Assembly: GCA_024231215.1 (NCBI GenBank)
Contig: JAAEQR010000142.1
Span: 36,593 to 100,592 of the forward strand
Direction of reading: 5' to 3'
Source of the DNA: PVC group bacterium
GTDB taxonomy: Bacteria; Omnitrophota; Gorgyraeia; B26-G9
DNA length: 64,000 bases
Shown: in pieces, positions 2,952 through 33,498 of the stretch
How positions within the stretch are numbered: position 1 is the stretch's first letter
Layout of the letters: each line of letters starts with the position of its first letter
The notes under the pieces: generated by a model
Seen by the model: the letters and a program-made list of their open reading frames with translations, nothing else
What the model was told of the DNA's origin: nothing
Database searches by the model: none
Position numbers and translations under genes: made by a program

Positions 2952-4025
2952 TTATGTTTTTATATAGGAAGTTACATATTTACGCAGTAACTCTTTATGG
3001 GATTTGCTCATTTTTGTTTTTGCCAATGTTGTCTCAGACTGATCCAGAAGTCTTTTAATCTCATTTTTTGACGTTTGATATGCTCCGGTATTAGTAATTA
3101 TTTTTCTGATTTTTTGGAGATCAGCGTATTTTAATTTTTCATTCCCCAAGCAAGACTGTATGAATTTGCGTTCATCCCGAGAGCATCTTTTAAAAGCAAG
3201 AAATATAGGCAGTGTTTTTTTTGATTCTATGATATCACTTAAAACCGATTTTCCAATCACCTTGCTTTTTTCGAATAGTCCGATAAGATCATCCTGTATT
3301 TGAAAAGCTTCCCCTAGATATTCTCCATATTCAGCCAGAGTATTTGCTTCGGATATGCTTCCTCCGGCAAGTATGCAGCCGCAAAACAGGGGTGATTTAA
3401 ATGTATATTCTGAAGTCTTAAGAATATAATTTAAGCGGATATCACTTTTTTTTATGCAGCTAATATCAATCAACCCATTTCTTATATCCTTAAATTCTCC
3501 TGCACCGGTAAGTACAGTAGCTCTGATAAATGCTTTAAGCGCTGTTTGCATGTCTTTTGGGGGAGTTTCCAGAGATAGAAAAGCATCTATTGCCATAGCA
3601 TAAATAATATCTCCGGCAACAATACTTAAATCTTGGCCGATTTTTTCCGATTGTCTAAGTGCGCGTTGGAATATCTTGTGCAGGGTAGGCTTACCTCGTC
3701 TGGTATTTGAATTATCGATTATATCGTCATGGATAAGTAGAAAATCATGTAATAATTCAAAAGCAACGGCTGTTTTTAAAAGTTGACTGGTTATTCTCTT
3801 TTTTCTGGAATATCCAAGATAGGAAAGGGTGAAAAAAGTCGGCCGGATTCTTTTTCCGTCCCGTAGGACAAAATCCTTTATTCCACTAACGAGTAAAGAA
3901 TCAACCCGAGACAGCCGGTATTCATTCATTTTCTCCTGAACATAGCTTTTTAAAGTAGTATTGATTTTTTGTTTTAAGTCTATAAACATATGAGTTATGC
4001 TACCACAACCTGATTTTTTTAACAA
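2952..4025 (-). CDS. Polyprenyl diphosphate synthase (trans-isoprenyl diphosphate synthase family)
   Basis: First Asp-rich motif LLHDFLLIHDDIIDNSNTRRGKPT and second motif FQIQDDLIGLF are both present. The ORF track start is a TTG at 4025. An alternative ATG start is at 3989 (MFIDLKQ...). Confidence 0.85.
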   Translation of the reverse strand: MLKKSGCGSITHMFIDLKQKINTTLKSYVQEKMNEYRLSRVDSLLVSGIKDFVLRDGKRIRPTFFTLSYLGYSRKKRITSQLLKTAVAFELLHDFLLIHDDIIDNSNTRRGKPTLHKIFQRALRQSEKIGQDLSIVAGDIIYAMAIDAFLSLETPPKDMQTALKAFIRATVLTGAGEFKDIRNGLIDISCIKKSDIRLNYILKTSEYTFKSPLFCGCILAGGSISEANTLAEYGEYLGEAFQIQDDLIGLFEKSKVIGKSVLSDIIESKKTLPIFLAFKRCSRDERKFIQSCLGNEKLKYADLQKIRKIITNTGAYQTSKNEIKRLLDQSETTLAKTKMSKSHKELLRKYVTSYIKT

Positions 4026-4877: not shown

Positions 4878-5366
4878 ATGAAAAATATAATAAAAATAGT
4901 ATTAGTTTGTACAGTTATCCCGGTTTTTCTCTGTGCTTATAGGACTACTGATAGAGAAGAAAATGTGACTCAAAAATCAGAAGTTCCTACTACCCCTATT
5001 GTTGAATACGAAACAATCCCCCAGAACCACCAATCTCCCGAAGAATTGTATCTACATTATCATCTTATTATCGTAACCTCACTTGAAGAAGCGTCTACTA
5101 CTTTGGATGATAACCAATTTTGGGCATATGGGATGGGAACAAATGCATATCACTATTTAGAGCTACTCTGTGAACTTTTTAGTCCAGAGTATCAAAACAA
5201 ACTTACTCAGATATCCGAAAGTATTGCTGCCGCAACAGCTTATTTAAAAAAAGACAATCTAACCCAGATCCAAAAAAACAGGGTTAAACAAAAACTTAAG
5301 GATACAGCAAAAGTTTTGGATCGTGAGTATTCTTATGCTAAAATTGAAAACTGGTTGCAAAAATGA
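4878..5366 (+). CDS. Hypothetical secreted protein with N-terminal signal peptide
   Basis: Hydrophobic N-terminus MKNIIKIVLVCTVIPVFLCA. No recognizable domain. Confidence 0.5.
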   Translation: MKNIIKIVLVCTVIPVFLCAYRTTDREENVTQKSEVPTTPIVEYETIPQNHQSPEELYLHYHLIIVTSLEEASTTLDDNQFWAYGMGTNAYHYLELLCELFSPEYQNKLTQISESIAAATAYLKKDNLTQIQKNRVKQKLKDTAKVLDREYSYAKIENWLQK

Positions 5367-5953
5367 TTCTAAAATCAATAGCTGTTGGAGATTTGCAGGC
5401 AAATTGTTATATATTAGGTGATGAGCAGAGTAAAGAAGGGATTTTAATTGATCCCGGGGATGAGCCGACAAGAATAGAATCAGAATTAAAAGCAACGGGA
5501 ATATCATTAAAAGCTATTATTTTAACCCATGGTCACTTTGATCATACAGGTGCAGTAAATGCTTTTGATATCCCGGTATATCTGCACAAAGACGATGAGC
5601 GATTCTTAAGAATTAGCCTCTTGGGAGAAGATGTTATCGGAAATATCGACCAGTTGCAATTCTTAAACGATGGACAAAAGCTAAATTTTGGAACACTTAC
5701 TTTACACATAATACATACGCCGGGACATTCTCCCGGGGGCATTTGCTTACAGGTAGAAAATATTTTGTTTAGTGGCGATACACTGTTTGCTCAGGGAGTA
5801 GGCAGAACTGATTTACCGGGTGGTTCTTATCAGCAGCTATGTAGTTCACTTAAACATAAGTTGTTTATATTGGATGAGCATACAATTGTCTATCCCGGAC
5901 ATGGGCCACAAACAACAATAGGTGAAGAAAAAACAGGGAATTTTTACCTATGA
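5363..5953 (+). CDS. MBL-fold metallo-hydrolase (glyoxalase II-like)
   Basis: LTHGHFDHTGAV is the HxHxDH motif. Downstream metal-ligand HTPGHSPGG and GDTLF are present. There is an ATGA overlap with the upstream gene. Confidence 0.85.
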   Translation: MILKSIAVGDLQANCYILGDEQSKEGILIDPGDEPTRIESELKATGISLKAIILTHGHFDHTGAVNAFDIPVYLHKDDERFLRISLLGEDVIGNIDQLQFLNDGQKLNFGTLTLHIIHTPGHSPGGICLQVENILFSGDTLFAQGVGRTDLPGGSYQQLCSSLKHKLFILDEHTIVYPGHGPQTTIGEEKTGNFYL

Positions 5954-6474
5954 ATTTAACACGTAGAGAGATATTATTGTCTTTTATCTATCTTATTGTT
6001 GTAATTGGAATTGCATTATATTTTTTCTTTTACAAGTTTTTGTTTATTCGTCATAATAAAGTAAATACCCAAATAACATCTGTAGAAAATGCCCTGACAA
6101 AGATGAATTCGATTATGGCCAGCAAATCCATAGTCGAGAAAGAGTATAGTGTTTTTGAGAAAAAGCTATCTTCAGAAAAAGTAAAACAAACAGCCTCTAC
6201 GGAAATCTTGCAGGATATAAAAACAAAGGCAGCACAAGCCGGATTAAATGTTATTAATATAAAACCCTTTTTGTTGAAAAAAGAGGGGTTATACGGAGCG
6301 TTTGATTTTAAGTTAGAAACCGAAGGTACTCTTAAAAATATAGGTCAATTTCTATATAATCTTGATGATTCTCCGTATTTATTTACAATAAAGTACTTAC
6401 AAATGAATGCCCGGACTCAGGGGGAGCATTTGCAGGTACAGCTAATGTTAAGTGCTATTTTGGCGAAAGAGTGA
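5950..6474 (+). CDS. Pilus/T2SS assembly protein, PilO/GspM-like
   Basis: N-terminal TM helix, then a coiled-coil segment, then a small C-terminal alpha/beta domain. Lies directly upstream of the PilP-like and secretin genes with ATGA start overlap. Confidence 0.45.
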   Translation: MNLTRREILLSFIYLIVVIGIALYFFFYKFLFIRHNKVNTQITSVENALTKMNSIMASKSIVEKEYSVFEKKLSSEKVKQTASTEILQDIKTKAAQAGLNVINIKPFLLKKEGLYGAFDFKLETEGTLKNIGQFLYNLDDSPYLFTIKYLQMNARTQGEHLQVQLMLSAILAKE

Positions 6475-6478
6475 TATA

Positions 6479-6979
6479 ATGGGGGAAAAGATTACCACGA
6501 TTCCATATAAGCATCTACAGTGGTTTAATATTTTCAATATACTGCTTGTAGTATTTGCAATATTATTTGCCGGAGGGCTTCTTTGGCTGCAGTTTTTTTC
6601 CGAACCAAATATAGTTTTTAATTTTCGGCATCAAAACAGCATGTCTGAATCCGTGACGGGAATGAAATTCCTGAAAAAGCCCATGGATTATTATGAACGC
6701 ATTTTATCCCGCAAAAGATTATTTGTAGCACAGCCCGGGGTAAAACGTATTAAAAAGACAGGCCTATCTATGAGCCTGGATGTACTACTAGATGAGTTGC
6801 AATTGCAGGGAATTGTATCTGGGCCCCAAGGACCACAAGCTATTATTTTTAATGCAAAAACAAATCGTTCGCATTATTGTCAAGGCGGAGAAACAATTGG
6901 TGGCTTTATAGTAAAGGAAGTGCTACCTGATAAAGTAGTATTAGATAGAGATAACGAAGAGGTTGAATTGAAATTATGA
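6479..6979 (+). CDS. Pilus assembly protein, PilP-like
   Basis: N-terminal TM segment. C-terminal beta-sandwich-like region GIVSGPQGPQAIIFNAKTNRSHYCQGGETIGGFIVKEVLPDKVVLDRDNEEVELKL is typical of PilP. Stop overlaps the secretin start. Confidence 0.45.
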   Translation: MGEKITTIPYKHLQWFNIFNILLVVFAILFAGGLLWLQFFSEPNIVFNFRHQNSMSESVTGMKFLKKPMDYYERILSRKRLFVAQPGVKRIKKTGLSMSLDVLLDELQLQGIVSGPQGPQAIIFNAKTNRSHYCQGGETIGGFIVKEVLPDKVVLDRDNEEVELKL

Positions 6980-8478
6980 AATTCAAGATCATATGTTTAG
7001 TGCTTATATTCATGACTCTTACTGTCTCAGGATTACAGGCAGAAGATGCTACATCTTTACACATCAACTTAGATGTTAAAAATATGAGCATTATCGATGT
7101 ATTAAGATTATTAGCGGAACAGGGACAGGTGAACATTGTTGCCAGTAAAAATGTTCAGGGTCGAATCACGGCTAAATTACAAGGTATAACCGTAGAAGAA
7201 GCTTTAGGGGCAATTTTAGATGCAAATAACTTTATTTACAAAAAAGAAAATAATATCATAAAAGTGTATGCCCGGCAGGATATTTTGCAGCAGGAACAAA
7301 CCGAGAAATTAGTAAGCAGGGTATTTTTGCTTGTTCATATCAAGGCCACTGATTTTAGGCAAGTATTAAATTCCATAAAATCTGCAAGAGGACGAGTAGA
7401 AATTAATACAGTTTCTAATCAAGTAATTGTAACTGATACCTTGGAAAAGATGGCAGAAATAGAACAAATAATAGCCGATTCTGATATGAAAATGGTTACA
7501 AAAATTTATAATTTAAATTATGCTGATGCAAATAGCCTAAAAGATAAGCTTATAGAAATGATTCCGAAACAAGCCGGGGATGTTTTTGTTGATGAACGTA
7601 CAAATGGTATTGTTATAAGAGCAGTTTCAGAAACGATTGAGAAAGTTGATTTACTGATGCAAAGCTGGGATAAGCGTTCTTCCCAGGTATTGATTGAAGC
7701 AAAAATATTAGAAGTATCTTTAGATAAAACAAAAGGACTGGGAGTTAGCTGGGAATATCAATCAAGTTCCAATAACGATGCTACCAGTCTTTCTGCTAGT
7801 TTGCCGGCAAGCATAAGCGGCGGGGGCATTTTTAAGGTAGGAACATTAACACAAGATGAATATACAGTAACCATACAAGCGCTGGAAAGTTCTACTAATA
7901 CAAATATCCTATCCAACCCCAGGATTGTAGTGGTTGACAATACCGAAGCAAATATTTTAGTTGGAAGTGCGGAACCATACTTAGTTACTTATATTGACAA
8001 AGAAACTAATACCCAAACAGAAGAAACTAAATTTATTGATGTCGGAGTAAAGTTAAATGTTACTCCTAAAATCAGCAAAGACGATTATATTACCTTAAAG
8101 ATTCATCCAGAAGTAAGTTCTGCCAGAAGAGTAGCTGAAGTCAATAACGCTCTGGCGGTAGATACAACCCAAGCTGATACAACTGTGGTTGTGAAAAACG
8201 GACAAACCATTGTAATGGGGGGATTAATAAAAGACACCTCGTCAAAAGTCCAAGCCAAAGTTCCAGTTTTAGGTAGTATCCCGATTATCGGTTTGTTTTT
8301 CAGGAGTCACGCTACTGCAAAAATCAAGAAGGAAATAGTAGTTTTTATTACTCCTCATATTTTAGAAAACAGCGAAACTAGGATAACAGTTGGTGATAGA
8401 GAGCAGGCAATGAAACAAGCTATCCAGGAGGCTGCTAATAAATGGGATGAATGGGAAGGAGAAAAAGATTATGAATAA
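6976..8478 (+). CDS. pilQ: Secretin family outer-membrane channel (type IV pilus PilQ / T2SS GspD-like)
   Basis: Signal peptide plus an N0-like domain. C-terminal secretin core NPRIVVVDNTEANILVGSAEPYLVTY...VKNGQTIVMGGLI...VPVLGSIPIIGLFFRS. Confidence 0.85.
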   Translation: MKFKIICLVLIFMTLTVSGLQAEDATSLHINLDVKNMSIIDVLRLLAEQGQVNIVASKNVQGRITAKLQGITVEEALGAILDANNFIYKKENNIIKVYARQDILQQEQTEKLVSRVFLLVHIKATDFRQVLNSIKSARGRVEINTVSNQVIVTDTLEKMAEIEQIIADSDMKMVTKIYNLNYADANSLKDKLIEMIPKQAGDVFVDERTNGIVIRAVSETIEKVDLLMQSWDKRSSQVLIEAKILEVSLDKTKGLGVSWEYQSSSNNDATSLSASLPASISGGGIFKVGTLTQDEYTVTIQALESSTNTNILSNPRIVVVDNTEANILVGSAEPYLVTYIDKETNTQTEETKFIDVGVKLNVTPKISKDDYITLKIHPEVSSARRVAEVNNALAVDTTQADTTVVVKNGQTIVMGGLIKDTSSKVQAKVPVLGSIPIIGLFFRSHATAKIKKEIVVFITPHILENSETRITVGDREQAMKQAIQEAANKWDEWEGEKDYE

Positions 8479-21905: not shown

Positions 21906-21983
21906 CGGGGCGTGGCGCAGTTTGGCTAGCGCGCTTGAATGGGGTTCAAGAGGTCGGTGGTTCAAGTCCACTCGCCCCGACCA
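21906..21983 (+). tRNA. tRNA-Pro (anticodon GGG), CCA encoded
   Basis: Cloverleaf: acceptor stem CGGGGCG pairs with CGCCCCG. D-stem GCGC/GCGC. Anticodon stem CTTGA/TCAAG with loop ATGGGGT, giving anticodon GGG and G37. T-arm GGTGG-TTCAAGT-CCACT. Discriminator A followed by CCA. Confidence 0.85.
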
Positions 21984-22021
21984 TTTTAATATAATTGTAG
22001 CTATACAGATAGGAATTGATT

Positions 22022-22474
22022 ATGGACGAAAATATACATTATCATCCTAAGGGAGAAGATACGGGAGAACGACGCAAGTTTTTACGTATCAACGCTAATT
22101 TTGTGGTTAGCTATCATGAACATCCGGGAAAAGTCAACAATACTGATATGACCTTAACTCGCAATATTAGTTTAGGCGGGATTTGTTTTACAAGTGACAA
22201 AGACTTTGAACTCGGGGCTATTTTAAAGATCATTTTGCGTTTGCCAAAAGTAACAAAACAAATAGAATTCTTAGGAGCAGTAGTTTCTACTAAGCAAGAA
22301 AATGGTAAAAATTCCATATTTGACATCGGGGTGAAATTTGTGGAAGCAGAGGAAGAAGACCTTTATATTTTGCAAAACATACTTAAAGAATGTGCTTCTT
22401 CTGGTAATAAAAATAATTTAATTATAAGTATAGAAGAAAAATCAGAAAAAGAAAAAAAAGATGAAGATAGTTAA
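22022..22474 (+). CDS. PilZ domain protein (c-di-GMP binding)
   Basis: RRKFLR is the RxxxR motif and NISLGGICF is the D/NxSxGG motif. A Lys/Glu-rich C-terminal tail. The ATG at 22022 is preferred. The track start is a TTG at 22016. Confidence 0.8.
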   Translation: MDENIHYHPKGEDTGERRKFLRINANFVVSYHEHPGKVNNTDMTLTRNISLGGICFTSDKDFELGAILKIILRLPKVTKQIEFLGAVVSTKQENGKNSIFDIGVKFVEAEEEDLYILQNILKECASSGNKNNLIISIEEKSEKEKKDEDS

Positions 22475-26146: not shown

Positions 26147-26175
26147 TTGACACACTAAAAAGGATATGATATACT
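26147..26175 (+). promoter_or_regulatory. Sigma70-type promoter (TTGACA-17 nt-TATACT) driving the riboswitch leader
   Basis: -35 TTGACA at 26147-26152, a 17-nt spacer, and -10 TATACT at 26170-26175. Confidence 0.5.
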
Positions 26176-26235
26176 TATTATAGGATTTAAAAAACATTTT
26201 AATTTGTTGCGGATAAATTAGTATTATTTGTATCC

Positions 26236-26325
26236 GAAAAGGCAAACCCTGAGAAATCAGGGGGCGCAAAGCTACGGGTCTGTTAGCAGATGCTATGATC
26301 GCCGGGCGCACCGATAACGTTCTAG
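26236..26325 (+). promoter_or_regulatory. Candidate cyclic-di-GMP-I (GEMM) riboswitch aptamer
   Basis: GGCAAACC, then hairpin CCCUGA-GAAA-UCAGGG with a GNRA loop, then GGGGCGCAAAGCUACGGGUCU. This closely parallels the conserved P2 region of the V. cholerae Vc2 aptamer (GGCAAACC..GAAA..GGGACGCAAAGCCUCCGGCCU). It is GC-rich relative to the flanks. Confidence 0.55.
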
Positions 26326-26337
26326 CAAGCTTATGAT

Positions 26338-26377
26338 AGCCGAGCTGCCGAAGTATACGCAGTTGCGGCTTTTTTTA
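26338..26377 (+). terminator. Intrinsic terminator, likely the riboswitch expression platform
   Basis: AGCCGAGCTGC-CGAAGTATAC-GCAGTTGCGGCT forms an 11-bp stem with one bulge, followed by T7. Confidence 0.5.
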
Positions 26378-26420
26378 TTCTAAACCTAATATATAAGGAA
26401 GGGAGGTGATAAGCATAGCC

Positions 26421-26546
26421 ATGAAAAAAATTCAAAAAAGGGATACACACATTATATTATTTATATTTTCTATATTATTATCTGAAACATCTATATTTTC
26501 TTTAACATATTATCTATTTATATATCAAATCAGGAGGCTAATATGA
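26421..26546 (+). CDS. Candidate 41-aa hydrophobic leader/uORF peptide, translationally coupled to the giant gene
   Basis: The ATG at 26421 gives MKKIQKRDTHIILFIFSILLSETSIFSLTYYLFIYQIRRLI. Its stop TGA overlaps the ATG of the downstream gene (ATGA at 26543-26546). The SD-like GGGAGGTGA is far from the start, about 11-14 nt. Not in the ORF track because it is under 60 aa. Confidence 0.25.
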   Translation: MKKIQKRDTHIILFIFSILLSETSIFSLTYYLFIYQIRRLI

Positions 26547-29500
26547 AAATCTTACGTTATTATACCCTTGCAGTTGTTTTTTGTTTCTTAGCAAATGTGA
26601 TCCTGTCAGTACCCGGTGCTAATGCCCAAACCCATGATGAGCTTTTAGATAGCGGGCTTAGCCAGGAAGTGTTACAAGGCTTATTCAATTCTAATGAGCC
26701 GATCAGTAATCAAAGTGACGCTGCCAATCTTTCCCAGAGTGAAATTGCACCGCCCCCTTTAGTTATCACTACATCCGGTGGTGACATTTATCTACTTCAA
26801 GGTGATGGTGTTAAAGCCAAGATGAAGATAGATCAGCAAGGCACTTTAGAAACAACCTATTCTCTTGACGGTGCTGACTACAAAATGATCAATGAGTTTG
26901 GTGAAGAATTTCATTATGAATACTCCCCGGACGGACAAACAGTACAAATTCTAAATGCCAATAACGAAGTTGTTGGAGAACACTCATTTGAATTGGGCAA
27001 AGCAACCGCATTTTCCGCCCAGGGCAAAATAACTTACCAATATTCTGATGATGGACTTAATCGCTTAGTGACCTCCACAGATGAATGGGGCAATGTTACT
27101 CATTATGACGACTTAAGCCGTCCCACAACAATTACAGACACAGATGGCAACGTTGTCGGAGAATACAAGTTTGATTCTAAGGGTCGGATGCAATCTTTTA
27201 CCGATCGTACCGGAAATGTCACAGTTTTTAATTCCGACGGAATCCGTCCTTTATATACTAAAAATGCACAAGGCACAAAAACTCAGGAATACCGTTATGA
27301 TAGCGACGGACATCTTGACGCGGTAATGAATATTACCAATGGACAAATAACCGAAGTAGAAAATGGATATTACACAGTAACTTATGATACAGTTGAAGTG
27401 CTCAATGATGACGGCACTGTAATGACTGATGAAAACGGTGAAGCAGTACTTGAATATGTTGCAGTCGGCGTATATTCTTATGATACGGCTGGAAATGTAG
27501 AATCTGTTAGCGATCTTGGAATGGGAGGAGTAATTACAGGCTTTACAGAGTATGATGATTACGGAAGAGTTTGTGCTTCCTATAATGCTGAAGGCACTAA
27601 GGTTCAAGAATACAAATATAATGAACATGGTTTCTTGGAAATGACTATATCACTGGGAGCAGTTGATCCATTGGCTGGAGAGCAAACTGTTTTAACTTAT
27701 ACAATATTTGACGGTAATGGTCGTCCAAGTGAAGTATGGCAGCTTGGTGATGGGGAAAACGACAAGATAAAAATCCAAGAATACGTGTATAAAGAAAATG
27801 GTCTTCTGGATATAACCGTTTCTTATGGTATAGAACGGGATGATCAAGGAAATGCAGTACTTAATGATGCCGGAAACTACATTTATTTTGAAACATCAAA
27901 AACTGTTTATGATAAAAAAGGCCGTCCTGAAGCTGTATATGGGATGGTTCGCAATGAAGCTAGCGAATTAGTTGTAGATAGCGATGGAAAACCGGTGCTG
28001 GAGATACAGCAAAAGTACGTCTATAATAAGGAAGGTTTTTTATCTAAAACGATATCTTACGGATTTAACGGTGCAAAAACAGGAGAAACAGTATTTGACG
28101 CATACAGCCGTCCGGTAGAATCTTATAATAGCACCGGGGCTTTAACCCAAACCTATACTTATCGTGAAGACGGTTTCTTAGCTCAAACTTCCAATTATGG
28201 AGACGCGGGAACATTAACCGGATATACACTATATGATGCAAAGGGCAAACCTACCGATGTATTTAATCATGAAGGCAGTCTTGTCCAAAAATATATATAT
28301 GATGAAAATGGTTCAATGATAATGAGCTTAAGCTTATCTTCCGAAGAAGGTGTGAATGACTTAATAGCTGCTACAATTCAGGATAAAACTGCCATTGCTG
28401 ATCTATGGAATAGCGATTGGGATTCAACTTATGACTTTCTTGATCCTGACAATAAGCTTACTTCAGAATATTTAACTTCTGTTGCATGGACAGCTTTAGC
28501 TGACGGTGATATTGAAAAAGCAAAAGCATTTACATTAAAATGCATCCAGACTTTTTCAGGAGAAGCTTTGTCTCAGCAAAAAAGTTTAGATGAACTACCA
28601 ACCGGGCCTGGAATTTCCCAAAATTGGGCCGTAAATGATGTTGGTACTTGTTATAATATTCTAGGTTTGGCTTTAGAGGAAGAAGGCGCTGTTGATGCCG
28701 CAGTAAGCGCATATAAAATACAAGCTTCTGATTTTGGCTATGCACAGGCCTATGACCCGGCAGAAGGCAGCTATTGGCTGGTAAGCGACGGGTCTAAAAA
28801 ACAGTTAGGAGAACTAAACGTAGAAACATCTGTTGTAACTGGATACACTATGTTTGGTGGAGACTCAAAACCAGTTGCTTCATATCAGTTTTATGAAAAA
28901 TTCGATGAGAATGGAGTAAGCCTTGGTGTGCAGGCAACAAAAGTGCAGGAATATGTATACTCCTATGAAGGTAAAACAAAAAATAAGGAAACCGGAGAAT
29001 ATTCAATGGTAACAAAATACTCTGGTTTTGTGCAAAAAACCAGCAACTATGGAGATTTCGATGCTGATACCGGAGAGCAGGTCGTAACCGGTTATACTGT
29101 GTTTGATAAGCTTGGACGTCAACAAAAAACATATAACGACGAAGATCAAGCTGTTCAATCCTACCAATATTCAAATGAAGGTTTTTTAAAAAGCACTGTT
29201 AGTTATGGCCAAAATGGCGTAAGAACAGGAACTACTATTTTTGATAGCTATTCACGTCCAGTTGCCAGCTTCAATATGATGGGTACAAGTACTGGCAAGA
29301 TGCCTAAATCATTTATCCAGGCTCTTAGTAATGGATTAACTAACGAAGAATTAAGTTCTCAAGAATGGCAGCCTTACTTAAAAGGCCTCAGTCAAACCTT
29401 TGAATACGGTAGTGATGGATTCTTAAGCAGCAGCAAATCTTATGGAGAAGCCATAGAAATCAAGGTTACTGATTTTGACGGATTTGCTTCATCTATGGGA

Positions 29501-32500
29501 TCCAGGAAAGGCGATGCTGAATATAAAGCTAAGTATGATTTCAACGAAGATGGAAGTATCAATACAGCAGATATGACTATCTTTAACGACGCCTTTTCCG
29601 GCATAATGGAATTCTCCGAGACTTATGGCTCTACATCAGACGGTCCTGGTCTTTACTTAGCGAAATATGATTATGACAGCGATGGAGATGTAGACAAAAC
29701 GGATCTAAGAGTATTCGCTAAGACATTTGAAAATACAGCAAAATACAGCCCTACCTGGACTGGAGTAACTCACTATGATAAATATGGGAAGGCTGACAAA
29801 GTAATCAATGTTATTACAGACGAGGATGGAAATCCGACTGAAGGTATTATGGTACAACAATATGAATATAATACCCGCGGTTTCATGGAAAAATCTGTTT
29901 CCTATGGAGTTGTAACAGACGATAATGGCACTATAATTATGGATGGAGATACTCCAATTGCCTTGGCCACTGGATACACATTGTTTGATGCTAAATCTCG
30001 GCCGGTATCTACATATAGTATTTATTCTTCTGCTACAACACAACCTCAAGAATCCAAAGTCCAGGATTATGTATATGAAGAAGGTTTTTTAGTTAAAACC
30101 GTCAACTATGGAGATATTGATGCAGAAACAGGTAATGCGGTAGAAACCGGATATACTGAATTTGATAGATATGGGCGTCAAACAGTATCGTATAATGAAT
30201 CCGATCAAAAAGTATCAACATTTAAATATTCTTCCCAGGGCTTTTTGAACGAAACATATAACTACGGAAAAAACGGAGCATTCCAGGGAAAAACAACATT
30301 TAATAAGAGTGGTCGCCCTGTAGAAGCCTACAACATGTATGCAAGTAGAAACGGCAAAGAAACCGGGTTGACTCAAAAATTTAACTACAATGAATATGGC
30401 CTTATGAGTCATAGTGAAACTTTTGGAGAAAACCAGACTCTAACCGGAACAACGTATTATAATGGTTATGGAAAAGGTTTACGGGTAGAAAACGAAAAAG
30501 GCTTTGTTATTTCCTCTTATCATTATAACGAACGCGGTTTTATGGAAAAAACACAAAGTCTTGCTTTTGTAGAAGTAACTGACCCGGAAGAGATCGCACA
30601 GCTTCAAGACAGCGGACTGTATGTAGAAATCACAACAACAGACGATAGTACTAATGAAACAGTAACAGCCGGCGGATTTTACGCAGTAACCGGTCATACA
30701 GAATTCGACGCATATTCACGTCCCACAGACTCCTACCAATGCTACTGGGATACTCAAGGGGAAGGTGAAAGAGTTAAAGTTCAGGAATACAAGTACGAAG
30801 ATGGCTTCTTAGTAGAAACTATAACTTTAGGCAGACCGGATGAAACAGGAGCTCAACAGCAAACAGGCCGTACTGAATTTGACAAGTATGGACGTCAGGT
30901 AGCATCATATAATGAATTTGATGAGCTTACAACAAAATACAAATACTCTACTCAAGGGTTTCTCTCAGGAACCAGCAACCATGGAGCACGTGGAGTTATT
31001 ACCGGTAAAACTGAAATCGGAGCTTTAGGAAAACCAACTGGAGCTTATAATCAAAAAGGAACCTTAGTTCAGTCTTTCAACTATGATAGTGTTACCGGTC
31101 AATTAACCGGAAGCACATCTTATGGAGAACCTGATGCCGAAACCGGAAATCCTACATTAACCGGTACTACTACATATGATGCCTATGGTAAAGCAACTGC
31201 AGCATATAATGATAAAGGAGCTCAAGTACAAAAATATGTATACGATAACCAGGGATTTATGTTAGAAACCGTTAGCCTGGGCGATGACATAGGACAAGGC
31301 CCGGTAGAAACAGGCCGAACAGTGTATGATCATGCCAGCCGGCCAATGGAATCTTATACTATCTCAGCTAGCGGAGTAGAAACTAAAGTTCAGGTATTTG
31401 TATACAATAGTGCAGTTAATTTATCTAATTATGAACAATATATTGCAAATCCAACTGATGCTCAGTTTGCAGAGACGGAAACCGGGTTCTTGACGACTAC
31501 ATTCAGTCATGGCAAAAATAACCACTTGGCTGGGTATACGAAGTTCAATAACTATGGACAACAAGAAGCATCATATAATGAGTTTGATGAGATGACTGTT
31601 GCATTCAAATATTCCAAGTCAGGCTTCATGACTGAATCCTGGAATTACACTATCAACAAAACTCGTACAGGTGTAACCTCATATAGTGCAACAGGAAGGC
31701 CAGACGCTTCATATAATGAAAAAGGCGCTGTAATCCAGGAATTCAATTACAATGACAATGGGTTTTTGGTATCTACAAACGGTTATGGAGATCTGGATGA
31801 AAACGGTGATCCTACATTAACACAAACCACACATTATGATGAATTTGGAAAACAAACACATAGCATGAATATAGATGGTGCTATTTCCCAAACTTTCCAT
31901 TATGATGATGCTGGTTTTCTTGAAAGATCAACCGGCTGGGCACAACGTGAAGATACTCCGGATACTCTTATCTGGTATGAAGTCTTAGATCAAGGATATG
32001 CCGTGGAAACTAGTTATACACTGTACAATGATGCATCCAGACCTTCTGAATCATACAGTGTATATGAAGGTGCCTCTGGAAAAACAGAAATGAAAACACA
32101 AGAGTTTATTTACAACACAGGCGTTGATGAAACCAATTATCAGGCATACATGGAAAATCCAGAAGCATTCAGCGAGACTGTAACCGGATTCATGACACAG
32201 TCTGTAACTTTCGCTCTAAATAACAGCAGTGTAGATGCGGAAGGAAATCTTGTATTTACCGATTCTTACTCACACGTAGATGAAGAAAGCGGTATTACTA
32301 CTGCCAATGAATTAGGCTCTGAAGTAATTGTCTCTGGGTTGACTTCGTACAATCGATATGGTCGTCCGGATACAACTTACAATCATGAGGGGCAAAAAGT
32401 TTCCGTAAGTAAGTACAATCAAAACGGTTTCCTGCAACAAACTGAAAATTACGGAGATAACGGTGCTATTACCGGTAAATTGCTATACAACGCAGCTGGC

Positions 32501-33427
32501 AGACCAACCGAAGCATTAAACCACAAAAACGTCAAAGTAACAGAATACTTCTATAACGATCAAGGTGGGTTAGACGTTACTTTAAACTACAACAATGGAA
32601 CTATAACCCAAAGAACAGAATATGACATATATTCTAAGGCAACAGCTTCTTACCAGCTTTTCTCAGGAAAAGAAGGTAACAAATTTGGAGAACAGCAGGG
32701 ATATCAATATGATGCCTCAGGAACCGCTAACTATGATGTAAATAATCCTACTGCACGTGGCAGCGGAACATTAACCCAGCAAAGTTACTATAATGAATTC
32801 GGGTTAATGAAGGCTTCTGTTACTTACGGAAGAAGTGGAAAAGAGACCAGTTATGTTGTATTCGATAAATATCAAAGACCAGTTGAAGTATATAACATAT
32901 CTCCTGATAATCAAAACGGTCGCGATACAATTTTGTCCAGCATCATTGTGCAAAGCGAAAACGTTTATACGGGAGAAGCTGCTGCTAACCTGGGATCAGC
33001 TAGAGTTCAAAGCTACAACTATAATGCAAATGGCTTTATGACCTCAACGATCTCTTATCAGAGATCAAAGGACTACGATGATCAGGGTAATCCGGTGGCT
33101 GACGGAACTTGGGAAAAAGAAACCTCAATCACTTACTATGCAAGTAACGGGCAACAAATAAACACATTCTTGCTAAAAGATGGGGTACAGGCTAATCTCG
33201 CAAAACCTGATCACACAGTCGGTGCAAAACAAGCTGAATACAAGTACAACACTAATGGGTTCTTAGACAGAGCCTATAATTATCAGGATAATTCTCAGAC
33301 AGGATACACCAAATATGATGATAGCGGAAGACAAACAACAAGCTACAATGATAAAGGCACTGCTGTCAATGCTTACTGGTATAATTCAAATGGGTTCTTG
33401 ATTGGTAGTACCTCGCTGGGACAGTAG
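26543..33427 (+). CDS. Giant secreted repeat protein (2,294 aa). Built from about 40 degenerate YD/RHS-like repeats with a central dockerin-like Ca-binding pair. Putative surface or extracellular protein.
   Basis: Signal peptide MKILRYYTLAVVFCFLANVILSVPGANAQ. Recurring unit of about 45 aa: TGYTxFDxYGRQxxSYNExDQxVxxYKYSxxGFLxxTxNYGxNG. Dockerin-like segments KYDFNEDGSINTADMTIFNDAF and KYDYDSDGDVDKTDLRVFAKTF. Cys-free and rich in G, Y, T and N. SD CAGGAGG precedes the ATG. Confidence 0.85.
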   Translation: MKILRYYTLAVVFCFLANVILSVPGANAQTHDELLDSGLSQEVLQGLFNSNEPISNQSDAANLSQSEIAPPPLVITTSGGDIYLLQGDGVKAKMKIDQQGTLETTYSLDGADYKMINEFGEEFHYEYSPDGQTVQILNANNEVVGEHSFELGKATAFSAQGKITYQYSDDGLNRLVTSTDEWGNVTHYDDLSRPTTITDTDGNVVGEYKFDSKGRMQSFTDRTGNVTVFNSDGIRPLYTKNAQGTKTQEYRYDSDGHLDAVMNITNGQITEVENGYYTVTYDTVEVLNDDGTVMTDENGEAVLEYVAVGVYSYDTAGNVESVSDLGMGGVITGFTEYDDYGRVCASYNAEGTKVQEYKYNEHGFLEMTISLGAVDPLAGEQTVLTYTIFDGNGRPSEVWQLGDGENDKIKIQEYVYKENGLLDITVSYGIERDDQGNAVLNDAGNYIYFETSKTVYDKKGRPEAVYGMVRNEASELVVDSDGKPVLEIQQKYVYNKEGFLSKTISYGFNGAKTGETVFDAYSRPVESYNSTGALTQTYTYREDGFLAQTSNYGDAGTLTGYTLYDAKGKPTDVFNHEGSLVQKYIYDENGSMIMSLSLSSEEGVNDLIAATIQDKTAIADLWNSDWDSTYDFLDPDNKLTSEYLTSVAWTALADGDIEKAKAFTLKCIQTFSGEALSQQKSLDELPTGPGISQNWAVNDVGTCYNILGLALEEEGAVDAAVSAYKIQASDFGYAQAYDPAEGSYWLVSDGSKKQLGELNVETSVVTGYTMFGGDSKPVASYQFYEKFDENGVSLGVQATKVQEYVYSYEGKTKNKETGEYSMVTKYSGFVQKTSNYGDFDADTGEQVVTGYTVFDKLGRQQKTYNDEDQAVQSYQYSNEGFLKSTVSYGQNGVRTGTTIFDSYSRPVASFNMMGTSTGKMPKSFIQALSNGLTNEELSSQEWQPYLKGLSQTFEYGSDGFLSSSKSYGEAIEIKVTDFDGFASSMGSRKGDAEYKAKYDFNEDGSINTADMTIFNDAFSGIMEFSETYGSTSDGPGLYLAKYDYDSDGDVDKTDLRVFAKTFENTAKYSPTWTGVTHYDKYGKADKVINVITDEDGNPTEGIMVQQYEYNTRGFMEKSVSYGVVTDDNGTIIMDGDTPIALATGYTLFDAKSRPVSTYSIYSSATTQPQESKVQDYVYEEGFLVKTVNYGDIDAETGNAVETGYTEFDRYGRQTVSYNESDQKVSTFKYSSQGFLNETYNYGKNGAFQGKTTFNKSGRPVEAYNMYASRNGKETGLTQKFNYNEYGLMSHSETFGENQTLTGTTYYNGYGKGLRVENEKGFVISSYHYNERGFMEKTQSLAFVEVTDPEEIAQLQDSGLYVEITTTDDSTNETVTAGGFYAVTGHTEFDAYSRPTDSYQCYWDTQGEGERVKVQEYKYEDGFLVETITLGRPDETGAQQQTGRTEFDKYGRQVASYNEFDELTTKYKYSTQGFLSGTSNHGARGVITGKTEIGALGKPTGAYNQKGTLVQSFNYDSVTGQLTGSTSYGEPDAETGNPTLTGTTTYDAYGKATAAYNDKGAQVQKYVYDNQGFMLETVSLGDDIGQGPVETGRTVYDHASRPMESYTISASGVETKVQVFVYNSAVNLSNYEQYIANPTDAQFAETETGFLTTTFSHGKNNHLAGYTKFNNYGQQEASYNEFDEMTVAFKYSKSGFMTESWNYTINKTRTGVTSYSATGRPDASYNEKGAVIQEFNYNDNGFLVSTNGYGDLDENGDPTLTQTTHYDEFGKQTHSMNIDGAISQTFHYDDAGFLERSTGWAQREDTPDTLIWYEVLDQGYAVETSYTLYNDASRPSESYSVYEGASGKTEMKTQEFIYNTGVDETNYQAYMENPEAFSETVTGFMTQSVTFALNNSSVDAEGNLVFTDSYSHVDEESGITTANELGSEVIVSGLTSYNRYGRPDTTYNHEGQKVSVSKYNQNGFLQQTENYGDNGAITGKLLYNAAGRPTEALNHKNVKVTEYFYNDQGGLDVTLNYNNGTITQRTEYDIYSKATASYQLFSGKEGNKFGEQQGYQYDASGTANYDVNNPTARGSGTLTQQSYYNEFGLMKASVTYGRSGKETSYVVFDKYQRPVEVYNISPDNQNGRDTILSSIIVQSENVYTGEAAANLGSARVQSYNYNANGFMTSTISYQRSKDYDDQGNPVADGTWEKETSITYYASNGQQINTFLLKDGVQANLAKPDHTVGAKQAEYKYNTNGFLDRAYNYQDNSQTGYTKYDDSGRQTTSYNDKGTAVNAYWYNSNGFLIGSTSLGQ

Positions 33428-33461
33428 GTATTACAATTAAAGATCCAGATGCAGCTGTTTT

Positions 33462-33498
33462 AGCAAAAGCCCCTTGGTAACCCCAAGGGGCTTTTGCT
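33462..33498 (+). terminator. Terminator hairpin after the giant gene
   Basis: AGCAAAAGCCCCTTGG-TAACC-CCAAGGGGCTTTTGCT is a perfect 16-bp stem. Confidence 0.6.

Follow-up and report, generated by a model that had tools for sequence, protein, structure and literature searches.

Large secreted proteins of uncultured bacteria are readily found in assembled genomes, and the question raised by the locus described here is what signal, if any, decides when such a protein is made. In the 64,000-nucleotide (nt) window that we analysed (all coordinates are positions of this whole stretch of Omnitrophota DNA), a gene for a giant repeat protein follows a leader that an earlier note had read as a riboswitch for the second messenger cyclic di-GMP (c-di-GMP). 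The account that we favour, and hold to be probable though well short of certain, is that a c-di-GMP ON riboswitch drives a secreted YD-repeat protein. The gene itself, whose size and limits were borne out, is:

26543 to 33427, + strand: gene for the (putatively secreted) YD-repeat protein, 2,294 amino acids (aa)

Identity of the aptamer and its ligand

Run at gathering thresholds, an Rfam scan of the window returned two elements, one tRNA and one class-I c-di-GMP aptamer, the latter on the + strand at 26232-26353, where model RF03167 scores 67.9 bits (gathering threshold 59) and a second member of the clan also exceeds its own threshold. The GEMM-like aptamer that had been placed at 26236-26325 is thus present as a class-I aptamer, but its limits were drawn too tightly: the former 3' limit falls 28 nt short and cuts off the true 3' strands of P2 and P1. 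The segment beyond it, GAUAGCCGAGCUGCCGAAG, contains the 3' strand of P2, the equivalent of C92 and the start of the 3' strand of P1, and is also the 5' arm of a terminator. The parts of the aptamer are:

26230 to 26358, + strand: class-I c-di-GMP aptamer, long form (hereafter L), including P1, from the RF03167 match and covariation
26230 to 26236 paired with 26349 to 26358, + strand: P1, the outer helix of L
26247 to 26262, + strand: P1a, with a GAAA loop
26270 to 26280 (strand X) paired with 26335 to 26346 (strand Y2), + strand: P2 of L
26241, 26268 and 26348, + strand: pocket bases G26241 (G20), A26268 (A47) and C26348 (C92), positions read from the Rfam model alignment

The ligand-contacting positions of the Vc2 structures, G20, A47 and C92, have G26241, A26268 and C26348 as their equivalents, and these are the canonical class-I set. 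The fold is equally well marked. In a structure alignment of 13 non-identical leaders, drawn from related loci (loci numbered L001-L053 were found by protein search or by a search with a 21-mer described below, and the leader of L029 is identical in text to that of L003), the aptamer comprises 21 pairs with 96.3% of cells paired. All six pairs of P1a show compensatory changes (6/6), and 0 of 500 shuffles match the observed covariation score. The two-hairpin fold of the class, P1a with its GNRA loop together with P2, is therefore found with covariation, although the core of P2 is so nearly invariant that it is uninformative on pairing either way. P1 also covaries among loci: the window has GUAU/AUAC, L002 and others have UAUAUC/GAUAUA, and L010 has CCUUAU/AUAAGG (within AUAAAGG).

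One observation speaks against an ordinary c-di-GMP aptamer. The earlier note had proposed a search with the GEMM model RF01051; the leader does match clan CL00126 above gathering, but the best model for the window is the "GGC" variant, RF03167, and not RF01051. As RF03167 is the highest-scoring model for L010, L011 and L027 as well, one could hypothesize that the aptamer senses another ligand, such as cyclic AMP-GMP (c-AMP-GMP) or some unnamed GGC-class ligand. However, the consensus cores of the two models differ solely at CGC-G-AAG versus CGC-A-AAG—in context, ...GACGCGAAg... in RF03167 against ...GGCGCAAAG... in the window—and the window carries A at this position (position 47), so that the altered pocket of the GGC variant is not found and the pocket is expected to be that of an ordinary c-di-GMP aptamer. 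We accordingly rejected a "GGC variant" identity, noting that our understanding of what "GGC" means comes from reading the two printed Rfam consensus lines and that the variant is not described in Weinberg (2017, NAR). Nor does the window resemble c-AMP-GMP aptamers, which are told apart by a G20 to A change (PMC9481103), as it has G26241 at that position. That the further clan member clears its own threshold at this site too, and that most orthologous leaders match RF01051 best (36.7-64.1 bits; gathering 35), likewise argue against a different ligand. RF03167 probably wins because its model includes an immediately adjacent P1 (AUCCGAAAA), a feature common to the window, L010, L011 and L027 only. 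We therefore regard another ligand as very improbable, and the element as very probably a class-I c-di-GMP riboswitch.

Conservation of the aptamer with its gene

The existing database entry for the exact protein names it a hypothetical protein, from a "PVC group bacterium" metagenome-assembled genome (MAG). Its full-length relatives (~34-68% identity; 2,160-2,303 aa except for one of 2,981 aa) have records only as Omnitrophota MAGs or as unnamed metagenome or assembly entries. A class-I c-di-GMP aptamer lies ~100-260 nt before the start codon in 15/15 giant-gene-related loci with upstream DNA (L001-3, L005, L011, L027, L029, L044, L046-48 and L050-53), and the promoter and the terminator are conserved in the leaders examined. 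On comparative grounds, this recurrent pairing and the consensus terminator argue strongly for a single functional unit of riboswitch and gene. The search for orthologous loci that had been suggested thus finds the same pairing throughout, and the central proposal of the earlier note—a c-di-GMP riboswitch before a large secreted repeat protein—is sustained by the covariance-model match, the stem covariation and the pairing in all of these loci.

The surroundings are conserved as well. In the ortholog loci examined the order is hom, a PALP gene, apgM, in some cases cstA, the giant gene, kdsA, kdsD and kdsC, and in every locus fetched except L047 the giant gene stands between apgM (sometimes then cstA) and kdsA-kdsD-kdsC; L047 keeps the upstream neighbours and has a different gene downstream. 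A tRNA gene lies ~4.3 kb upstream of the riboswitch both in the window (21906-21980) and in L027 (3864-3938). This equal distance indicates that the spacing from tRNA to giant gene is conserved.

A terminator that shares a strand with the aptamer

The leader is framed by a promoter and an intrinsic terminator, and the gene is followed by a second hairpin:

26147 to 26175, + strand: sigma-70-type promoter (-35 TTGACA at 26147-26152, 17-nt spacer, extended -10 TGaTATACT at 26167-26175)
26338 to 26376, + strand: leader intrinsic terminator (26338-26348 paired with 26359-26370, G26365 bulged; loop 26349-26358; seven U at 26370-26376)
33462 to 33498, + strand: hairpin 3' of the giant gene (perfect 16-bp stem; inner GC stem GCCCCTTGG/CCAAGGGGC with AAAA/TTTT flanks)

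The promoter, TTGACA-17-TATACT as read before, matches the consensus at 11/12 positions with an extended -10 TG and is the top site in the 8.2 kb scanned. Its elements (TTGAC and TGATATACT) are unchanged in three orthologous leaders (L001-L003) whose downstream proteins are merely 43-45% identical. Transcription is predicted to start near 26182, which would give a leader of ~360 nt. Upstream of the aptamer, within 26208-26236, CGGAUA (26210-15) is able to pair with UAUCCG (26231-36), i.e., with the 5' strand of P1. In the terminator state, ViennaRNA folds 26208-16 and 26224-32 into a hairpin that may serve as an anti-P1 element.

The leader terminator has a hairpin of -14.6 kcal/mol on its own and is also the RNAalifold consensus of the 13 leaders, with an 11-bp consensus stem. 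It had been described as lying at 26338-26377, after the aptamer; it is there (26338-26376), but the two structures are not consecutive. Specifically, the 5' arm of the terminator (26338-26348) is the 3' strand of P2 plus the C92 equivalent, 11 nt held in common with the aptamer, and the 3' strand of P1 falls in the terminator loop (26349-26358). As one arm thus serves both structures as competing partners, they are mutually exclusive and the element is expected to act as a switch; the overlap predicts a transcriptional ON switch. The hairpin beyond the gene is likewise as had been claimed, a perfect 16-bp stem of -32.5 kcal/mol (z = -8.6), and its AAAA/TTTT-flanked layout is that of a bidirectional terminator. 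A consensus terminator scan misses both terminators, the one for its bulged stem and the other for a long perfect stem without a trailing T-run. This negative is therefore uninformative here, and both were confirmed by folding.

In ViennaRNA calculations the state with terminator and P1a (-49.6 kcal/mol) is more stable than the complete long aptamer with P1 but no ligand (the apo form; -39.0 kcal/mol), which suggests a default OFF state and a need for tightly bound ligand to turn the gene on. Our conceptual model is that transcription would begin near 26182 from the strong sigma-70-type promoter. Were c-di-GMP absent, the terminator would form and transcription would halt at ~26376; were it bound, P1 and P2 would be locked, no terminator could form, and RNA polymerase would read through (ON). 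The read-through RNA would then pass an AT-rich spacer with a short translated open reading frame (ORF) and enter the 2,294-aa gene with its own Shine-Dalgarno sequence, and the product would be a Sec-exported YD-repeat protein that carries no toxin cargo and most plausibly acts as a surface or extracellular binding or scaffold protein. On these folding models we consider an ON sign of regulation probable.

An internal copy of the 3' strand and the direction of regulation

All of these aptamers carry an insertion in distal P2 (~54 nt in the window, 26281-26334), and within it lies a second version of the aptamer's 3' strand:

26297 to 26319, + strand: Y1, a conserved 23-mer (GATCGCCGGGCGCACCGATAACG) in the distal region of P2, an imperfect copy of the aptamer 3' strand
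26335 to 26353, + strand: Y2, the true 3' strand of the aptamer (GATAGCCGAGCTGCCGAAG)
26232 to 26316, + strand: S, a nested short aptamer-like fold that shares the 5' half of L, takes Y1 as its 3' strand and contains a mini-hairpin, AGC-AGAU-GCU (26285-26294)

Y1 occurs once in the window, and together with its preceding bases (GCUAUGAUCGCCGGGCGCACCGA) it is an imperfect copy of the true 3' half (GCUUAUGAUAGCCGAGCUGCCGA). Its core, GAUCGCCGGGCG(C/U)ACCGA(N)AACG, is invariant or nearly so, including in leaders found only via the protein, and Y1 is more strictly conserved than Y2. While Y2 agrees exactly with the family consensus, Y1 deviates from it, and does so invariantly: it has CG for the AG bulge, G in place of the closing U, and an additional base.

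Such a copy invites the opposite sign of regulation. We considered an OFF switch in which S binds the ligand via Y1 and Y2 serves only for antitermination, by pairing with X in ligand-free RNA; c-di-GMP would then lock X on Y1 and free Y2 for the 3' arm of the terminator, turning the gene off. The stricter conservation of Y1 would fit this, as would the score of S alone (54.0 bits on RF03167 once Y2 is excluded) and the choice of Y1 as aptamer 3' end by Rfam in L009 and L047, where the distal "CG" of P1 is lost. In expression platforms of riboswitches, moreover, an antiterminator strand typically resembles the strand that it replaces. On the contrary, the breaks in Y1 fall at conserved consensus positions whereas Y2 is exact, and L scores 14 bits above S despite a 45-nt insertion. 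The distal P1 varies compensatorily among loci, and so does the L1:L2 helix around Y1 (GCUA/UAGC, GCUAU/AUAGC, GCUAA/UUAGC, UUGC/GCAA, GUG/CAC and AUGUGCA/UGUACAU), which supports the long form with Y1 at the tip of an extended P2. Energies point the same way: S and the terminator are compatible and jointly reach -45.0 kcal/mol, more stable than L at -39.0, so that the apo RNA would terminate anyway and ligand-dependent competition would be lost. We therefore judge an OFF switch unlikely.

The ON switch nonetheless has several points against it, which we collect here. The unconstrained minimum free energy fold of the full leader (-51.5 kcal/mol) keeps long P2 and lacks the terminator; as this value is near that of the terminator state, the sign of regulation rests on modest differences. 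In L046 the distal strand has G at the C92 position, while Y1 there retains C—an observation that would favour the OFF switch. Ligand binding and termination are both steps that we infer. The Y1 copy permits a short fold compatible with the terminator, and a two-state ON model leaves Y1 without a role, so that the real mechanism is probably more elaborate.

Two observations bear on what that role might be. First, the gap between completion of the aptamer (26358) and the 3' arm of the terminator (26359) is essentially zero. Second, a simple thermodynamic decoy was rejected: with the terminator formed, the hairpin of the insertion (-49.6 kcal/mol) is favoured over X:Y1 (-45.0) by 4.6 kcal/mol. 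With equilibrium energies against it, any decoy role would have to be kinetic. We tentatively suggest, as a possibility that we would not rate as high as even, a riboswitch subclass with one 5' half and two alternative 3' halves (Y1 at 26297-26319 and Y2 at 26335-26353) that works as a three-part switch. Here Y1, transcribed first, would complete S as a non-binding or weakly binding look-alike that holds the 5' half during terminator formation, and only c-di-GMP would pull the RNA into L through Y2, dismantling the terminator. If true, such a decoy within the leader would make the switch less leaky, or alter the kinetics of its decision window, in a riboswitch whose aptamer runs right up to the 3' arm of its terminator.

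Possible translation of the spacer

Between terminator and giant gene lies a short upstream ORF (uORF), followed by the Shine-Dalgarno sequence of the gene:

26421 to 26546, + strand: uORF, ATG 26421 to TGA 26546, 41 codons (46 from GTG 26406), with GGGAGG at 26401-26406
26532 to 26537, + strand: Shine-Dalgarno sequence AGGAGG of the main gene, 5 nt before its ATG

The 41-codon hydrophobic uORF of the earlier note is a real ORF whose TGA overlaps the main ATG (26543) as ATGA, and an ATG ORF as long arises in 1.7% of spacer shuffles; its peptide, by contrast, is not conserved. Nucleotide differences between orthologs are spread over the codon positions as 11/15/10 and 3/4/3, an evenness that gives no sign of coding selection, and the peptide had no family match in a profile search. 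Its hydrophobicity is explained by U-rich codons in a spacer of 26% GC.

These observations bear on whether control could instead be mainly translational or coupled, with termination on the uORF near ATGA delivering ribosomes to the gene or shielding the AT-rich leader from Rho. Consistent with this, most of 13 ortholog leaders tabulated have, just after the terminator, an ATG ORF preceded by a Shine-Dalgarno sequence; L001 and L002, with 36 nt differences, both keep the frame open over 35 codons; and stop and start overlap in L046 as they do in the window. Yet the ortholog uORFs vary between 11 and 56 codons (11 in L052), their stops fall between -81 and +4 with respect to the start of the main gene, one reads in frame into the main ORF, and there is none in L047 and L050; in L044 the nearest purine-rich run lies ~15 nt before the ATG. 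For its own start the main gene has an optimal AGGAGG-5 nt-ATG, and an equivalent GAGGAGG precedes the main start in orthologs. Such a mechanism could supplement the riboswitch and not replace it, and as the principal control we consider it decidedly unlikely, though translation across the spacer may have a part in coupling or Rho protection.

The YD-repeat protein

The product had been called an uncharacterized repeat protein; repeats it has, but they can be named, as they are of the YD (Rhs) type. A Sec-type signal peptide is predicted at ~aa 1-29 (MKILRYYTLAVVFCFLANVILSVPGANA followed by Q, with cleavage between ANA and Q). YD-type repeats then span aa ~75-2294, interrupted by a helical insert at aa ~610-730. 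Some 42 half-repeat motifs (TxYDxxGRP and QxYxYNxxGFL) were matched by regular expression over the whole length.

Profile matches are faint. TIGR01643 reaches E = 0.044 (14.3 bits; cutoff 15.8), there is a weak sequence match to Tse5, and at E <= 0.01 the window protein had no match to PF05593, though this family is listed for several orthologs ("faint" where graded). The structural evidence is clearer. The AlphaFold model of the C-terminal half (mean predicted local distance difference test, pLDDT, 84.9; predicted template modelling score, pTM, 0.75) consists entirely of beta-hairpins, and that of the N-terminal half (pLDDT 73.8) has runs of them. In Foldseek searches, the top 40-46 matches per half are only Rhs, Tc, teneurin or SGS1 proteins (E = 1e-34 to 1e-13), the best (E = 4e-34) being among RhsA, Tse5, TcdB2-TccC3 and teneurins. 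Models and matches together identify a YD beta-hairpin repeat fold.

This likeness is local, as no global shell match was found in the predicted structures. We considered and ruled out an Rhs toxin: there is no Rhs core in NCBIfam or Pfam, no aspartyl autoprotease motif of the PxxxxDPxGL type (DPxG[LWIV] is absent from the entire protein) and no toxin cargo, the C-terminus being itself a YD repeat (...WYNSNGFLIGSTSLGQ) with no toxin domain after it. As modelled, then, the protein is a toxin-less YD-repeat protein. It also contains a dockerin-like region (aa ~998-1057; PF00404, 21.9 bits against a cutoff of 22.9) with two DxNxDGxIxxxD-like calcium loops, DFNEDGSINTAD and DYDSDGDVDKTD, and one ortholog is annotated as dockerin-containing. 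A surface-binding or scaffold role would fit the signal peptide and the dockerin-like module, and would agree with how large proteins of this phylum are viewed in the literature (PMC10066038).

Neighbouring genes and other loci with Y1

Upstream in the window lies a gene for a c-di-GMP receptor domain:

22016 to 22474: PilZ-domain ORF (Pfam PF07238, E = 2.5e-13, 50.7 bits)

This standalone PilZ gene ~4 kb upstream had been counted among the parts of the module. The domain is real, but membership in the unit is not upheld: the ORF overlaps hom by 14 nt, and hom, the PALP-family (threonine-synthase-like) gene and apgM separate it from the riboswitch, so that it sits in a housekeeping cluster and has nothing beyond proximity to recommend it. 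The gene does imply that the organism uses c-di-GMP; nothing else ties it to the unit. Elsewhere in the window, a PilQ-type secretin (6976-8478; Secretin, Secretin_N and STN domains) follows four small co-directional ORFs, and this region (4878-8478) looks like a type IV pilus assembly cluster from its sequence. An 811-aa ORF at 146-2581 has no Pfam family at E <= 1e-5.

A metagenome scan with a 21-mer of Y1 returned 40 loci, of which 14 are class-I aptamers (GC 33-51%); the other 26 of the 40 are GC-rich, lack the aptamer core and were discarded. To judge from the genes downstream, no fewer than three gene families follow aptamers of the Y1 subclass: that of the YD-repeat protein, that of PilB and MshEN-PilZ proteins, and a secreted family of about 165 aa. 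Specifically, one such aptamer lies upstream of a PilB/GspE-type ATPase with an MshEN domain (L009:6511-6720) and another upstream of an MshEN+PilZ protein (L010:5878-6100). As these targets are c-di-GMP receptor proteins, receptors would themselves be under a c-di-GMP riboswitch. In L019, L023, L030, L033 and L038, Y1-type aptamers are followed by secreted proteins of ~162-184 aa that match no Pfam family. Their N-terminus typically resembles MLKGNFWIKL..., and of three members printed, two contain an STGPP motif and two end in ...PNC.

Variation in the aptamer itself is considerable. In L046 (2676-2835) the distal strand is GCTGGCGAA, with G as the C92 equivalent, and the proximal copy retains ACCGA; this is either a variant of specificity or mechanism or an assembly error. 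Two extra hairpins (UCCGUGAAUAACGGA, and CUGCYG-loop-YAGCAG) stand between the 5' strand of P1 (UAUAUCCGAAAA) and G20 in L001 (2610-2720), L002, L003, L050 and L052; the 5' arm of the second, CUGCCG, repeats the 3' end of the aptamer and offers another possible alternative pairing. Extra insertions of 40-75 nt between P1a (..GGGGAC) and GCAAAG occur in L046 (2700-2770), L047 (2785-2860) and L048 (1680-1745), which indicates that the class-I aptamers of this lineage tolerate large insertions at several junctions. Finally, L007 (3681-3900) has a tandem arrangement, a canonical class-I aptamer (3681-3767) followed directly by a second, Y1-bearing element with an atypical P1a region.

Relation to known systems and biological meaning

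With GEMM-I aptamers (RF01051; e.g., Vc2 of Vibrio cholerae) the element shares two hairpins, the GAAA loop on P1a, a receptor-bearing P2 and the G20/A47/C92 pocket, and the class is known to precede surface, pilus or signalling genes (PMC7266159). It differs in the insertion of P2, with its second 3'-strand copy and nested fold, and in its host phylum, Omnitrophota. To c-di-GMP-I-GGC (RF03167) it is closest by score (67.9 against a threshold of 59 bits), yet it has A where that model has G at position 47. Riboswitches that turn genes on through overlap with a terminator include the pbuE adenine riboswitch and the c-di-GMP ON switches before adhesin and pilin genes of Clostridioides, and the identity of aptamer 3' strand and terminator 5' arm is the same in the window; Clostridioides also provides the precedent for a large surface-type target. 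Tandem c-di-GMP switches precede surface-anchor genes (PMC9481103), whereas the window has a single aptamer, an internal decoy-like copy (Y1) and a near-zero decision window.

On the protein side, the ~40 YD-type beta-hairpin repeats of the window protein recall, with Foldseek matches down to 4e-34, the YD shells of Rhs proteins, the BC components of Tc toxins and teneurins. Large and giant surface ORFs, some with non-cellulosomal dockerins, have been reported from Omnitrophota and proposed to act in cell-cell adhesion (PMC10066038; bioRxiv 10.64898/2026.06.07.730766). Our protein is from the same phylum and is likewise a large, presumably secreted repeat protein with a dockerin-like module, but it has 2.3 kaa (thousand amino acids) as opposed to >6.7 kaa, is the product of a conserved single-copy gene in a fixed position, has a YD-repeat architecture that those two papers do not mention, and is one for which a regulatory input can be named. 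Riboswitch, c-di-GMP and RHS are likewise unmentioned in both. In those parts of the Omnitrophota/Omnitrophica literature that the search reached, there was no riboswitch in the phylum and no link of c-di-GMP to these proteins, and the searchable literature yielded neither a paper combining c-di-GMP, riboswitch and "YD repeat" nor anything on the regulation of large Omnitrophota surface proteins. A class-I c-di-GMP riboswitch before a surface-type gene is thus a known kind of arrangement; new are the phylum in which it occurs, the family of its target and, possibly, the nested 3' half.

Omnitrophota are uncultured, mostly ultra-small and probably host-dependent bacteria, whose large surface proteins are thought to mediate attachment. 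If our reading is correct, this locus supplies a concrete regulatory input, c-di-GMP, for a conserved, phylum-restricted YD-repeat protein of 2.2-2.3 kaa, and would thereby mark that protein as part of the organism's decision to attach or not. It would also bring toxin-less repeat proteins of the Rhs type into the known regulon of c-di-GMP riboswitches, and the conserved internal copy of the 3' half could show how an ON switch works when there is no time window between aptamer and terminator.

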